A DNA stretch of 64,000 bases from Bdellovibrio sp. (lineage in GTDB: Bacteria > Bdellovibrionota > Bdellovibrionia > Bdellovibrionales > Bdellovibrionaceae), in NCBI GenBank assembly GCA_036676395.1, contig JAKFCY010000002.1, forward strand, positions 160,001 through 224,000, written 5' to 3'. The translations under genes and the position numbers were made by a program. Position 1 is the stretch's first letter, and each line of letters begins with the position of its first letter. Below the pieces are notes generated by a model, which searched no databases, was not told the DNA's origin, and saw only the letters and a list, made by a program, of their open reading frames with translations. Shown in pieces: positions 44,594 to 46,767 of the stretch.

Positions 44594-44614
44594 AATTTAG
44601 GTCTTTAAAATGCA

Positions 44615-44647
44615 AAAAGCGAAATGAGCTTACGCCATTTCGCTTTT
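44615..44647. terminator. Bidirectional terminator-like hairpin
   Basis: AAAAGCGAAATG/CATTTCGCTTTT 12-bp stem; the minus-strand tail reads TTTTTGCATTTT. Confidence 0.75.
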
Positions 44648-44687
44648 ACAAGATATTCAGGCTTCATTCCGAAGAAAGGAGCCGAAT

Positions 44688-44810
44688 ATCGGAACTTATA
44701 TATCCACGTATATAACTTTTCGGAATAATAAGCGAAAACTTAAGTATTACCTCTGGCTAGTTTTATGTCTTCTCGAAGTCATAAAGCGTATCTTAGACTT
44801 AATACGATAG
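44688..44810 (+). CDS. 40-aa basic/hydrophobic peptide, putative type I toxin (non-canonical ATC start)
   Basis: AAGGAG 6 nt upstream of ATC; (I/M)GTYISTYITFRNNKRKLKYYLWLVLCLLEVIKRILDLIR*. Confidence 0.5.
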   Translation: MGTYISTYITFRNNKRKLKYYLWLVLCLLEVIKRILDLIR

Positions 44811-44937
44811 AGTCAGTTTGTTAGAGGATTCTTTCTAGATCACCGTCTGCGTACATTGATCATCGGAAGAAGTTTCGGGTAAATTGGAAAAGTCACTGCG
44901 TGACTGCGCAGAGACCTAATTCGGAATGGCGTTAAGC

Positions 44938-46767
44938 TCACTTACTTACTAAGTGAGCGAGCTCTTGTTTTTTAATCTCTAAATTTTCCATGTGATTCAT
45001 CAAAGCTTCTTCCATGTTTTCAGTCTCAGTGTTTAAAGCTGCGGCCTGTTTGGCTAATTCTTGCGCCTGTTGGCCTTGAGCGGTGATCAGAGTCGAAGTT
45101 AATTCAGTTTGTTTTTCAGCTTGGCGAAATAATAACTCTTCGGTTTTAAGAATTTTTCGCTCTAATTCTTTAATTTCAGAATTTAAACGTTTGGTTTCTT
45201 CTTTATAGTTAAACTTTTTCTCTGAAGATTCAGAGTTAGTCACAACTTTTTCCACCACGATTGGCGTATCAACGCGTTCGCTTAAGATGCCCTTTTCTAA
45301 ACTCCATAAGTATTCGTCATATGACCCTAAGTATTTTTCGATCGTGCCGTTTCTGACTTCGACAATTTGTGTAGTCACTTGTTTTAGAAAAGTACGATCA
45401 TGGCTGACTAAGATCACTGTGCCGTTAAACTCAGAAAGCGCTACAGCTAGGGCATTCACGGTATCAAAATCTAAGTGATTCGTTGGCTCATCCAGAAGTA
45501 AGAGTGGATTTTTTTGTAATAACACTTGGCCTAAGGCCACGCGTGTTTTTTCGCCGCCAGAAAGCACTTTGATTTTTTTATAAATGCTATCGCCAGAAAA
45601 CAACAAAGAGCCTGCCATATTTAAAATGTCTTGAGCCATATTGTCTTTATGAGCTTTTCGTTGAAGCGCGTCTAAGACGGTATCGTTATCTAATAAATCA
45701 TCGGCTAAGTGCTGGGCAAAATAAGAATGGCGCACTTGATGGCCCCATTTAAGTTCGCCTGTGATTAACGGAATTTTTTCAGCAATAGATTTTAATAACG
45801 TCGATTTACCGGCGCCGTTAAAACCAACAATACCAATTTTTTGACCGCGCTCGATCGTGACGTTCACATTTTTAAGAATAACTTTATCTGCACTATAACC
45901 AAGATTGGCATTTGTCAGAGATAAAATTTCTTTTCCGGTCGGTGTAGCTACGGGTAAGTTAATAATCGCCCGCGGCGGTAATTTCTTGATTTCGACTTGT
46001 TCTAAGCGATCTAAACTTTTCAAGCGACTTTGCGCTTGTTTGGCTTTGGTGGCTTTAGCTCTGAATTTATCGACGAAATCTTGAATGTGCTTACGTTTGT
46101 TTTCGATTTGCACAGCTTTGGCTTCTAATAAACGCTTTAATTCAGCCTTTTGTTCGAAGTAATCATCAATATGACCCGGAAATTTCACAATATCACCAGC
46201 TTCGACTTCTAAAGTGTATTCAGTCGTGCGACGTAAAAATTCGCGGTCATGCGAGATCAATAAAAACGCCTGTTTATGATTTTGCAAAAAGTTTTCTAAA
46301 GTTAGAATGCTTTCTAAATCTAAAAAGTTGGTCGGCTCATCCAAAAGCATGATGTCTGGCTCTAGCCCGATCAGGTAAAGAAGCTTCATGCGCATACGAT
46401 AGCCGCCTGAAAGCTGTGTCAATTTTCCGGCAAAGTGACTCTCTTGTAAGCCAAGCCCAAGGCCGATTTGCTTTAATTCCCAAATGGGCTTGATGCAATT
46501 GTCTTTAAGGTAGTCTTCAGAGTTCACATCGACTGTCCAATCGGACTCTTGCTCGAGGTAGCCGATGCGTAAACCATTAGCTTTTGTGACTTCGCCGTTA
46601 TCTAAATGCTCTATACCCACGATAATTTTGAATAGAGTGGATTTGCCAGCTCCATTGGGGCCGATCACGCCAACGTGTTCGCCTTGATTAATGGAAAAGC
46701 CGGCGTTATCAAAAAGGATTTTTGAGCCATATTGCTTAGATGCATTGTAGAGTTGAAGCAGATTCAT
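44938..46767 (-). CDS. ABC-F family ATPase (YheS/Uup-like)
   Basis: Two GxNGAGKST Walker A motifs, LSGG, two LLDEPTN, no TM, C-terminal coiled coil. Confidence 0.93.
   Translation of the reverse strand: MNLLQLYNASKQYGSKILFDNAGFSINQGEHVGVIGPNGAGKSTLFKIIVGIEHLDNGEVTKANGLRIGYLEQESDWTVDVNSEDYLKDNCIKPIWELKQIGLGLGLQESHFAGKLTQLSGGYRMRMKLLYLIGLEPDIMLLDEPTNFLDLESILTLENFLQNHKQAFLLISHDREFLRRTTEYTLEVEAGDIVKFPGHIDDYFEQKAELKRLLEAKAVQIENKRKHIQDFVDKFRAKATKAKQAQSRLKSLDRLEQVEIKKLPPRAIINLPVATPTGKEILSLTNANLGYSADKVILKNVNVTIERGQKIGIVGFNGAGKSTLLKSIAEKIPLITGELKWGHQVRHSYFAQHLADDLLDNDTVLDALQRKAHKDNMAQDILNMAGSLLFSGDSIYKKIKVLSGGEKTRVALGQVLLQKNPLLLLDEPTNHLDFDTVNALAVALSEFNGTVILVSHDRTFLKQVTTQIVEVRNGTIEKYLGSYDEYLWSLEKGILSERVDTPIVVEKVVTNSESSEKKFNYKEETKRLNSEIKELERKILKTEELLFRQAEKQTELTSTLITAQGQQAQELAKQAAALNTETENMEEALMNHMENLEIKKQELAHLVSK

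Follow-up and report, generated by a model that had tools for sequence, protein, structure and literature searches.

A conserved ATC at the start position of a candidate type-I-toxin-like gene in a Bdellovibrio genome

At hok/sok loci, on plasmid R1 and in its chromosomal relatives, a small membrane peptide is encoded by an mRNA that is closed by 5'-3' pairing and has an occluded Shine-Dalgarno sequence (SD), and a short cis-antisense RNA lies over the translation start region. Divergently encoded, trans-acting small RNAs characterize the tisB/istR-1, dinQ/agrB and zorO/orzO systems. In aapA1/isoA1 of Helicobacter pylori, a 5'-3' interaction hides the SD in an inert and stable mRNA, the antisense RNA covers the 5' part, and there are competing local hairpins (PMC8167048). 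The brakes described for type I toxins include 5'-3' pairing, SD occlusion and non-canonical starts (PMC8167048, PMC8594479), the last of these being a known mode of lowering toxin translation (PMC8167048). Here we analyze a mini-gene element in a 64,000-nucleotide (nt) stretch of a Bdellovibrio sp. genome (the window: positions 160001-224000 of contig 2, JAKFCY010000002.1, of assembly GCA_036676395.1; genome size 3.40 Mb, 39.6% G+C). The element contains a 40-codon open reading frame (ORF; window positions 44688-44810, plus strand) that has ATC at the position where the other members of its family start translation. We think that the locus is probably one of the functional copies of a new family of modules resembling type I toxins, present in Bdellovibrio-type predatory bacteria.

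The frame 44688-44810 had been proposed in an earlier note on this DNA, and we confirmed that it is open for 40 codons. It translates as IGTYISTYITFRNNKRKLKYYLWLVLCLLEVIKRILDLIR and then stops, and the stop-to-stop frame around it (44628-44810) has no ATG, GTG or TTG inside. The note suggested that ATC was either a weak start or a mutation that had inactivated this copy. When we compared the start codon across orthologous loci, the balance fell on the side of the weak start. Among 83 distinct copies of the family (89 rows, less six second domain lines of ORFs already counted; one of them, L195, was counted as ATG from its sequence context, outside the SD filter), the aligned start codon is ATG in 78 and ATC in five, and GTG and TTG do not occur. 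The five ATC copies make up one clade and come from five species (G000, which is the window genome, G018, G016, G183 and G168). DNA identity to the window copy is 96% in G018 and approximately 74-78% in the other three. The frame, which the note allowed might be missing from orthologues, is intact over 40 codons in all five species, and so are the SD and the 6-nt spacing between SD and ATC.

The ATC clade has the signature of purifying selection on a protein. The ratio of nonsynonymous to synonymous divergence (dN/dS) is 0.15-0.38 for nine of the ten pairs of sequences, and for codons 12-40 alone it is 0.09-0.36 for nine of the ten; the closest pair, G000 and G018, has a ratio of 0.74, from only nine differences. 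Variable sites in codons 12-40 are distributed 5/1/16 over codon positions 1, 2 and 3 (chi-square p = 0.0003), and those in codons 2-11, which lie over a covarying hairpin, are distributed 3/5/4, with no third-position bias. Replacements are mostly like-for-like (I/V/L/M, N/K). The ATC is older than the split of the five species, among which dS reaches about 0.9, and the nearest ATG relatives (L033, L162, L002 and L023) show it to be the derived state. Since the frames are intact and under purifying selection, and since ATC occurs in five species, inactivation of this copy is unlikely. The ATC is a conserved and selected feature, most likely a weak start and not the mark of a dead gene, and we conclude that the ORF is probably still expressed as protein throughout the clade, most simply from AUC. 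Initiation at AUC in Escherichia coli has been put at 1-2% of that at AUG (0.02-3%, depending on the construct), with methionine at the N-terminus (10.1101/063800). Among the papers listed for AUC or ATC start codons, which deal with mitochondria, eukaryotes, and reporter or in vitro work, none describes a natural AUC gene start in bacteria.

The codon also takes part in the predicted fold. Its C pairs with a clade-conserved G (G44652 in the window), and this makes the hairpin that sequesters the start one pair longer. A sister subfamily (L023, L036, L090 and L192) starts five codons earlier, with MNRIS or MIRIS, and its DNA at this place, CCGAATGAACCGAAT(A/C)TCG, has CCGAAT directly repeated. 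The form found in the ATC clade looks as if this repeat had collapsed and the ATG had been lost; alternatively, the duplication may have come later and given rise to a new ATG. There is also a sixth ATC locus (L034, at C7:90422 in G168), a truncated remnant that lies beside an orthologue of the 195-amino-acid (aa) gene found upstream of the window copy. The remnant keeps the candidate promoter, 5' hairpin, SD and ATC and has a stop after three codons, and a full-length ATC copy is located elsewhere on the same contig.

The SD (AAAGGAG, 44675-44681) and the ATC (44688-44690) are buried in a plus-strand hairpin at 44652-44690, as the earlier note had said, with the right coordinates. It has 13 pairs and one bulge, with an energy of -16.9 kcal/mol that none of 500 dinucleotide shuffles equalled, and it is present in the minimum-energy folds of both 44612-44960 (z = -5.2) and 44624-44945 (z = -5.3). 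A fold that occludes the SD of the toxin mRNA, as in the type I toxin-antitoxin class, is thus found here. The strongest of three long-range pairings described in the note joins 44622-44642 to 44922-44943 (-27.1 kcal/mol, 0 of 500 shuffles as stable), and it covaries across the family. To put numbers on this, we calculated duplex energies between the 5' hairpin regions and the distal 3' untranslated regions (UTRs) of 33 full-length copies: the mean is -29.3 kcal/mol for cognate pairs and -20.6 kcal/mol for non-cognate pairs, and in 21 of the 33 copies the cognate duplex beats at least 95% of the non-cognates. The consensus fold of an 11-sequence subfamily alignment keeps this 5'-3' helix, with changes on both sides at six of its nine pairs, together with an anti-SD/SD helix that has compensatory changes and a CCGA/UCGG helix around the start codon.

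The other two pairings are weaker. The anti-SD arm of the leader (44654-44672) can pair with an arm in the middle of the 3' UTR (44863-44881) at -16.6 kcal/mol; support in the window is moderate (shuffle fraction 0.022), and the equivalent pairing has a shuffle fraction of 0.02 or less in nine of 11 subfamily copies despite their differing leaders. For the pairing of the SD with the pyrimidine block GGATTCTTTCT at 44826-44836, which may be a second anti-SD, the note's coordinates were correct; its energy of -8.7 kcal/mol gives a shuffle fraction of 0.17, which taken alone is not beyond chance. The fraction is 0.05 or better in five of the 11 subfamily copies, and by eye (unscored) a TTCTTTC/CTCTTTT pyrimidine block is conserved in the 3' UTRs of the subfamily, which lends the pairing some support. 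Because the three pairings run collinearly, they combine into a panhandle of 5' UTR and 3' UTR around the ORF. These RNA pairings are under selection. The note also drew attention to the overlap between the 3' arm at 44922-44943 and the stop codon (44938-44940) of a convergent gene for an ABC-F ATPase. The overlap is real and was given too much weight: it exists only in G000 and G018, and there is no ABC-F match in the loci (approximately 3.3 kb) of the other three full-length ATC copies. Because it is not conserved across the ATC copies, we regard it as incidental.

Three further hairpins complete the structure. The 5' hairpin (AAAAGCGAAATG..CATTTCGCTTTT, 44615-44647) reads on the minus strand as an intrinsic terminator, a 13-pair stem followed by TGCATTTTAA. 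Its loop and 3' arm double as the 5' partner of the long-range pairing, so the hairpin and the 5'-3' pairing are mutually exclusive, and its upper stem covaries between copies (by eye). A hairpin over codons 3-10 (TTATATA..TATATAA, 44696-44715, plus strand) is part of the minimum-energy fold, and other copies have different self-complementary sequences at the same place (by eye). Finally, a hairpin at 44892-44916 has the loop TGACTG, which is invariant in all 11 aligned sequences on stems that differ and covary. Read on the minus strand it precedes a T-run, in the ATC clade and the MNRIS group alike, and the scan of that strand lists it as terminator-like; it may be a second terminator of antisense transcription or else a site of loop-loop contact. 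By eye, the hairpin is not apparent in the shorter 3' UTRs of other subfamilies.

The predicted peptide has the build of small membrane-active toxins. In the window copy it consists of a basic N-terminal half (net charge +5) and a hydrophobic C-terminal helix with a few charges (grand average of hydropathy, GRAVY, 1.76 at residues 21-39). Family peptides are 39-45 aa long, within the size (less than about 60 aa) of the hydrophobic, membrane-directed peptides of type I toxin-antitoxin systems. All 23 aligned peptides have a 19-residue C-terminal stretch with GRAVY 1.6-2.8 and 2-5 charges, and 22 of them have a basic N-terminal part, the net charge ranging from 0 to +7.

The type I toxin architecture suggested in the earlier note finds support in the anatomy and the covariation. 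The note had placed no antitoxin and had overlooked candidate promoters on both strands. On the plus strand we found a candidate promoter of the sigma-54 type (AGGTCTTTAAAATGCA, 44599-44614) with the GG-N10-GC arrangement of -24 and -12 elements (GG at 44600-44601, GC at 44612-44613), and the genome encodes rpoN (216 bits). In 68 of 80 copies, a count that includes copies found by peptide profile alone, a site in which a G precedes the G of TGC by 11 nt lies upstream of the start codon at a distance of 85-89 nt. The -24 box has the trinucleotide GGC, GGT or AGC in 67 of the 80 scored sites, several copies reading TGGCAC, and TGCA is present at -12 in 63 of the 80. In the first set of copies the G at the -24 place is found in 44 of 44, at a position that lay outside the search pattern. 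Conservation upstream of the gene starts abruptly at the GG, which is separated by 10 nt from the GC of an ATGCA that does not vary, and the position expected of a -35 box has no signal. Transcription would start near 44625, about 12 nt after the GC, and this predicted start is within 2 nt of the onset of the 5'-3' helix. Two other candidates were rejected. A sigma-70 sense promoter with TAAAAT as its -10 element lacks a conserved -35 in the family alignment (information about 0), and the ATG at 44624, the start of a possible leaderless upstream ORF, is missing in many copies (by eye). The papers listed for sigma-54 together with type I toxins concern other subjects.

On the minus strand, the ORF contains a candidate promoter of the FliA (sigma-28) type at 44718-44743, consisting of TTAAG (44743 to 44739), a 15-nt spacer and CCGAAA (44723 to 44718). 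It overlaps Phe-Arg and Leu-Lys codons. In the family, the minus strand has CCGATA or CCGAAA opposite the near-invariant Tyr/Phe-Arg codons (TAT or TTT followed by CGG), and TTAAG or TTTAG opposite Leu-Lys or Thr-Lys codons at a distance of 15-16 nt; the consensus described for attack-phase (FliA) promoters of B. bacteriovorus is TTAAG-N16-CCGATA (PMC3627812). The window site matches 10 of 11 consensus positions, a score reached by none of 300 synonymous recodings of the ORF, and 31 of 41 copies match at least nine of 11 at the homologous place. To assess how far the amino acid sequence alone accounts for the match, we compared minus-strand scores with those of synonymous recodings drawn from the genome's codon usage: 9.48 against 7.79, with 17 of 33 copies at 5% or below. 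The plus-strand control gave 7.00 against 6.95 after recoding, with one of 33 copies at that level. The conserved Arg is encoded by CGG or CGA in 45 of 77 copies (the Arg anchor is approximate, some peptides having two Tyr/Phe-Arg pairs), and these two codons make up approximately 9% of Arg codons in the genome. The exact FliA motif occurs 13 times in G000 and its reversed control once, and the genome encodes FliA (274 bits). The candidate thus has both boxes and their spacing, goes beyond what the amino acids demand, and has its sigma factor in the genome.

A transcript from this promoter would run into the 5' hairpin, which with the TTTTTGCATTTT that comes after it is a strong intrinsic terminator on the minus strand according to the terminator scan. 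The predicted antisense RNA (44608-44711, minus strand, approximately 105 nt) is a candidate antitoxin. It would have full complementarity to the leader, SD, start codon and codons 1-8 of the mRNA and would terminate at the 5' hairpin; this predicted position is the usual place of a type I antitoxin. Its predicted fold has a single-stranded 5' end, one stem-loop and the terminator (z = -5.1). A sigma-70 antisense promoter in the ORF, suggested by a recurrent minus-strand TAAAAT, was rejected because synonymous recoding gives an equal score (13.7 against 13.4 in 27 ATG copies, median fraction 0.5), which makes it a by-product of Ile-Leu codons. The sole trans-acting antisense candidate in the genome, at C2:1462392 (E = 0.001), falls within a long ORF whose product, judged by eye, resembles a histidine kinase, and for that reason we took it to be a chance match.

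The family to which the window copy belongs is unannotated, many-copy and widespread in Bdellovibrio-type predatory bacteria, and it corresponds to no known peptide or RNA family. G000 has four confirmed copies: the window copy, a second copy in the window (approximately 54550-54905, ATG at 54639), one on contig 3 (ATG, 40 aa) and one on contig 2 at 2.16 Mb (ATG, 43 aa). A weak match to the peptide profile near 410774 on the minus strand of contig 3 (E = 3e-4) may be a degenerate fifth copy. The profile, which we built from 23 copies, has approximately 155 matches in the genus, in 37 of 52 genomes (26 of the 31 of high quality) and with 1-9 per genome, and it also matches three of five genomes tried in a second genus of the same bacterial family. 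In a set of 5.8 billion proteins there are only 23 matching proteins, none of which is named or has a Pfam domain. Public records with the same element carry the names Pseudobdellovibrio, Bdellovibrio, Pseudobdellovibrionaceae or Bdellovibrionales. E. coli genomes have no DNA match to the element. No Rfam model reached its gathering score anywhere in the window, and in 44560-44990 none did better than E = 0.6; a scan for transfer RNAs and transfer-messenger RNA found none. Literature retrieved for Bdellovibrio together with type I toxin-antitoxin has neither term in title or abstract. Two other ways of counting copies were abandoned: the pattern AAATGCAAAAAGCGA with one mismatch was too noisy, its control matching as well, and a gapped pattern run over all genomes also matched unrelated terminators in many phyla.

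The second window copy is more diverged and has a GG-N10-GC site at 54550-54565, a 5' hairpin at approximately 54565-54598, the SD GGAAGGAGG, a 36-aa ORF (MRKPNYLRYRRLL...) from the ATG at 54639 to 54749, and a 3' arm with complementarity to the 5' loop of this copy; on the minus strand, TTTAG-N16-ACGATA can be seen by eye across Tyr-Arg codons. Elsewhere in the family there are tandem pairs approximately 330-700 nt apart (L013, L169, L171 and L190, in G011, G167, G176 and G023) and frameshifted or read-through copies (L021, L022, L050, L132, L156 and L185).

The window copy is situated in a 344-nt gap between convergent genes. The plus-strand neighbor is a 195-aa ORF (44006-44593) that has no Pfam match; it is conserved beside the element in G018, at 94% identity, and beside the remnant in G168, at 74%. 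The minus-strand neighbor is the ABC-F ATPase gene (44938-46767). Family copies adjoin ABC-F genes repeatedly (L003, which is the G000 copy at 2.16 Mb on contig 2, and L054, L151 and L014), and in three genomes the 43-aa subfamily directly follows the stop codon of another ABC-F paralog. In G024 an ATG copy comes directly after an ortholog (64% identity) of the window ABC-F gene and in the same direction, whereas the window copy is convergent. The repeated adjacency could reflect a hot spot, inversion in place via the inverted ends, or a functional link. We also looked for transcripts in two soil metatranscriptomes in which this sequence has small shares; they yielded one contig over the element and one over part of the upstream gene. 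The former (run X2, 244 nt) spans 44636-44879 at 96% identity, and its nine differences, none of which is at the ATC, are all shared with G018.

Our proposal starts from the anatomy of the locus, the covariation of its pairings, the conservation of ATC and the selection on the peptide, all of which we observed directly. From these we infer two promoters, two transcripts, initiation at AUC and a toxic product. The sigma-54-type promoter would give a sense mRNA of approximately 320 nt beginning near 44625, whose 5' end would pair with its 3' end (44622-44642 with 44922-44943) and whose leader would zip further onto the 3' UTR. Since the SD and the start codon are held in the 13-pair hairpin, the full-length mRNA is expected to be poorly translated. 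Translation of the ORF would yield a 40-residue candidate membrane-active toxin. The FliA-type promoter within the Phe-Arg and Leu-Lys codons would produce the antisense silencer of approximately 105 nt, the candidate antitoxin, and AUC as a near-cognate start would cut initiation to roughly one-hundredth, as an extra heritable brake and not a knock-out. A bolder version, which we offer only tentatively, is a two-sigma switch in a 40-codon gene: sigma-54, which depends on an activator, would drive the toxic mRNA and FliA its silencer, the peptide could be made only once the predator left the attack phase, and one lineage would have fixed AUC for reasons of dose.

Several points weigh against this proposal. 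Where each of the two transcripts begins and ends is a prediction, and so is the existence of the antisense RNA. The sigma-54 site in the window is a loose match, with six of 12 consensus positions, and we found no activator site, there being no conserved sequence upstream of the GG, in an analysis that did not search for activator genes. The FliA-type site in the window has CCGAAA and not CCGATA, and a spacer of 15 nt and not the published 16. In an independent set of 37 copies the recoding signal has the same direction and is weaker (8.65 against 7.74; seven of 37 at 5% or below; 18 of 37 with at least nine of 11 positions). Taken by itself, the -35 half has only a modest enrichment (3.39 against 2.84, no single copy being significant). 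The preference for CGG could also come from the CCGA/UCGG helix of the sense strand. The dN/dS ratios are built on 8-27 differences per pair. In G016 a 1-nt difference in the leader creates an in-frame ATG 21 codons upstream, so this species may not depend on AUC. None of the 23 members has a family match in Pfam and NCBIfam even at E-values up to 10, so that profiles for Hok/Gef, Ldr, Ibs, ShoB, TisB, DinQ and the other toxin families in these databases all fail to hit; the peptides have no family match at E = 0.01 or better and no sequence tie to a known toxin family, and the nearest named clusters in a language-model protein atlas, TisB (0.82) and DinQ (0.80), are both below the evidence line of 0.9. 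The run X2 contig is a hint of expression that carries no strand information and may derive from DNA in the library.

The lack of matches to known toxin families also fits a different kind of product, a benign small membrane protein of the predator's life cycle, controlled by sigma-54 and an antisense regulator, for which AUC sets a low dose. The sigma-54 and FliA-type signals would then point to programmed, phase-specific expression, and FliA does run the attack-phase programme in B. bacteriovorus (PMC3627812). We consider this rather unlikely, since three stacked translation locks are an unusually heavy silencing for a harmless product, and the family has many diverged copies per genome, tandem pairs and truncated or frameshifted remnants. 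Many diverged copies, tandem pairs, decayed remnants and stacked translation locks are usual at type I toxin loci. In the ATC clade the peptide might instead have been lost and the transcript retained as an RNA regulator, such as a decoy that captures antisense RNAs of ATG paralogs, which would suit a non-canonical start that is better sequestered than in the paralogs, the conserved RNA pairings, and codons 2-11 being constrained in structure and not in amino acids (3/5/4). However, RNA constraint alone does not predict the coding signature of codons 12-40 (5/1/16, dN/dS 0.09-0.36 in nine of ten pairs, mostly like-for-like replacements), and the SD with its 6-nt spacing is retained in five of five copies, which makes an RNA-only role improbable in our judgment.

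Two further explanations seem to us very hard to sustain. One is that a change from ATG to ATC killed the copy and that the remainder has not yet degraded. ATC is non-canonical, 78 of the 83 copies have ATG, and the family does include decayed copies (L021, L022, L034 and L132); against this, the ATC predates the five-species split (dS up to about 0.9) and the frames are nonetheless intact under purifying selection, and identities of 74-96% speak against recent horizontal transfer of a single sequence. The other is that the locus is a mobile element resembling a miniature inverted-repeat transposable element, its ends being terminal inverted repeats and its ORF incidental. The ends are indeed inverted copies of each other, copies are found in many genomic contexts, and those of the ATC clade are non-syntenic in three of the five species. 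The ends covary copy by copy, however, with no single shared consensus, the ORF is under protein-level selection, and promoter-like, SD and terminator features stand at fixed places, so we give this explanation scarcely any weight.

A type-I-toxin-like module, the interpretation that we prefer, has consequences beyond this locus. The work defines an unannotated, widespread family of small genes in predatory bacteria. The family is a natural experiment on near-cognate initiation, in which sister copies of the same architecture have AUG or AUC and AUC has been kept under selection across species; if initiation at AUC were confirmed, the clade would be among the rare documented examples of bacterial genes whose AUC initiation codon is conserved and selected. 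The candidate antisense promoter would show that a promoter can be written into codons, here through the rare CGG and CGA at a near-invariant Arg. Together, the two promoter candidates suggest that sigma-54 and FliA govern opposite strands of one tiny locus, which would tie a membrane-active peptide to the switch between attack and growth.

Compared with the known systems, the locus resembles hok/sok in its small membrane peptide, its 5'-3' closed mRNA, its occluded SD and its predicted cis-antisense RNA over the start region. It differs in having no sequence relation (none in Pfam), in its sigma-54-like sense and sigma-28-like antisense promoter candidates, and in the probable AUC start of this clade. 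With aapA1/isoA1 it shares sequestration of the SD by 5'-3' pairing, a predicted antisense RNA over the 5' part, and local hairpins that compete with the long-range fold; it comes from another phylum, its peptide is unrelated, its antisense promoter candidate is within conserved codons, and its predicted antisense terminator doubles as the 5' hairpin of the sense RNA. The short, helical, hydrophobic peptide with a few charges in the helix resembles those of tisB/istR-1, dinQ/agrB and zorO/orzO, but the TisB and DinQ Pfam models match none of 23 members at E-values up to 10 and the atlas scores stay short of the evidence line, and, unlike the divergently encoded small RNAs of those systems, nothing is conserved here outside the element. 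Finally, the ATC clade resembles the type I toxins that are damped by a non-canonical start; to our knowledge the described cases use GUG or UUG, whereas in this clade the codon is AUC.

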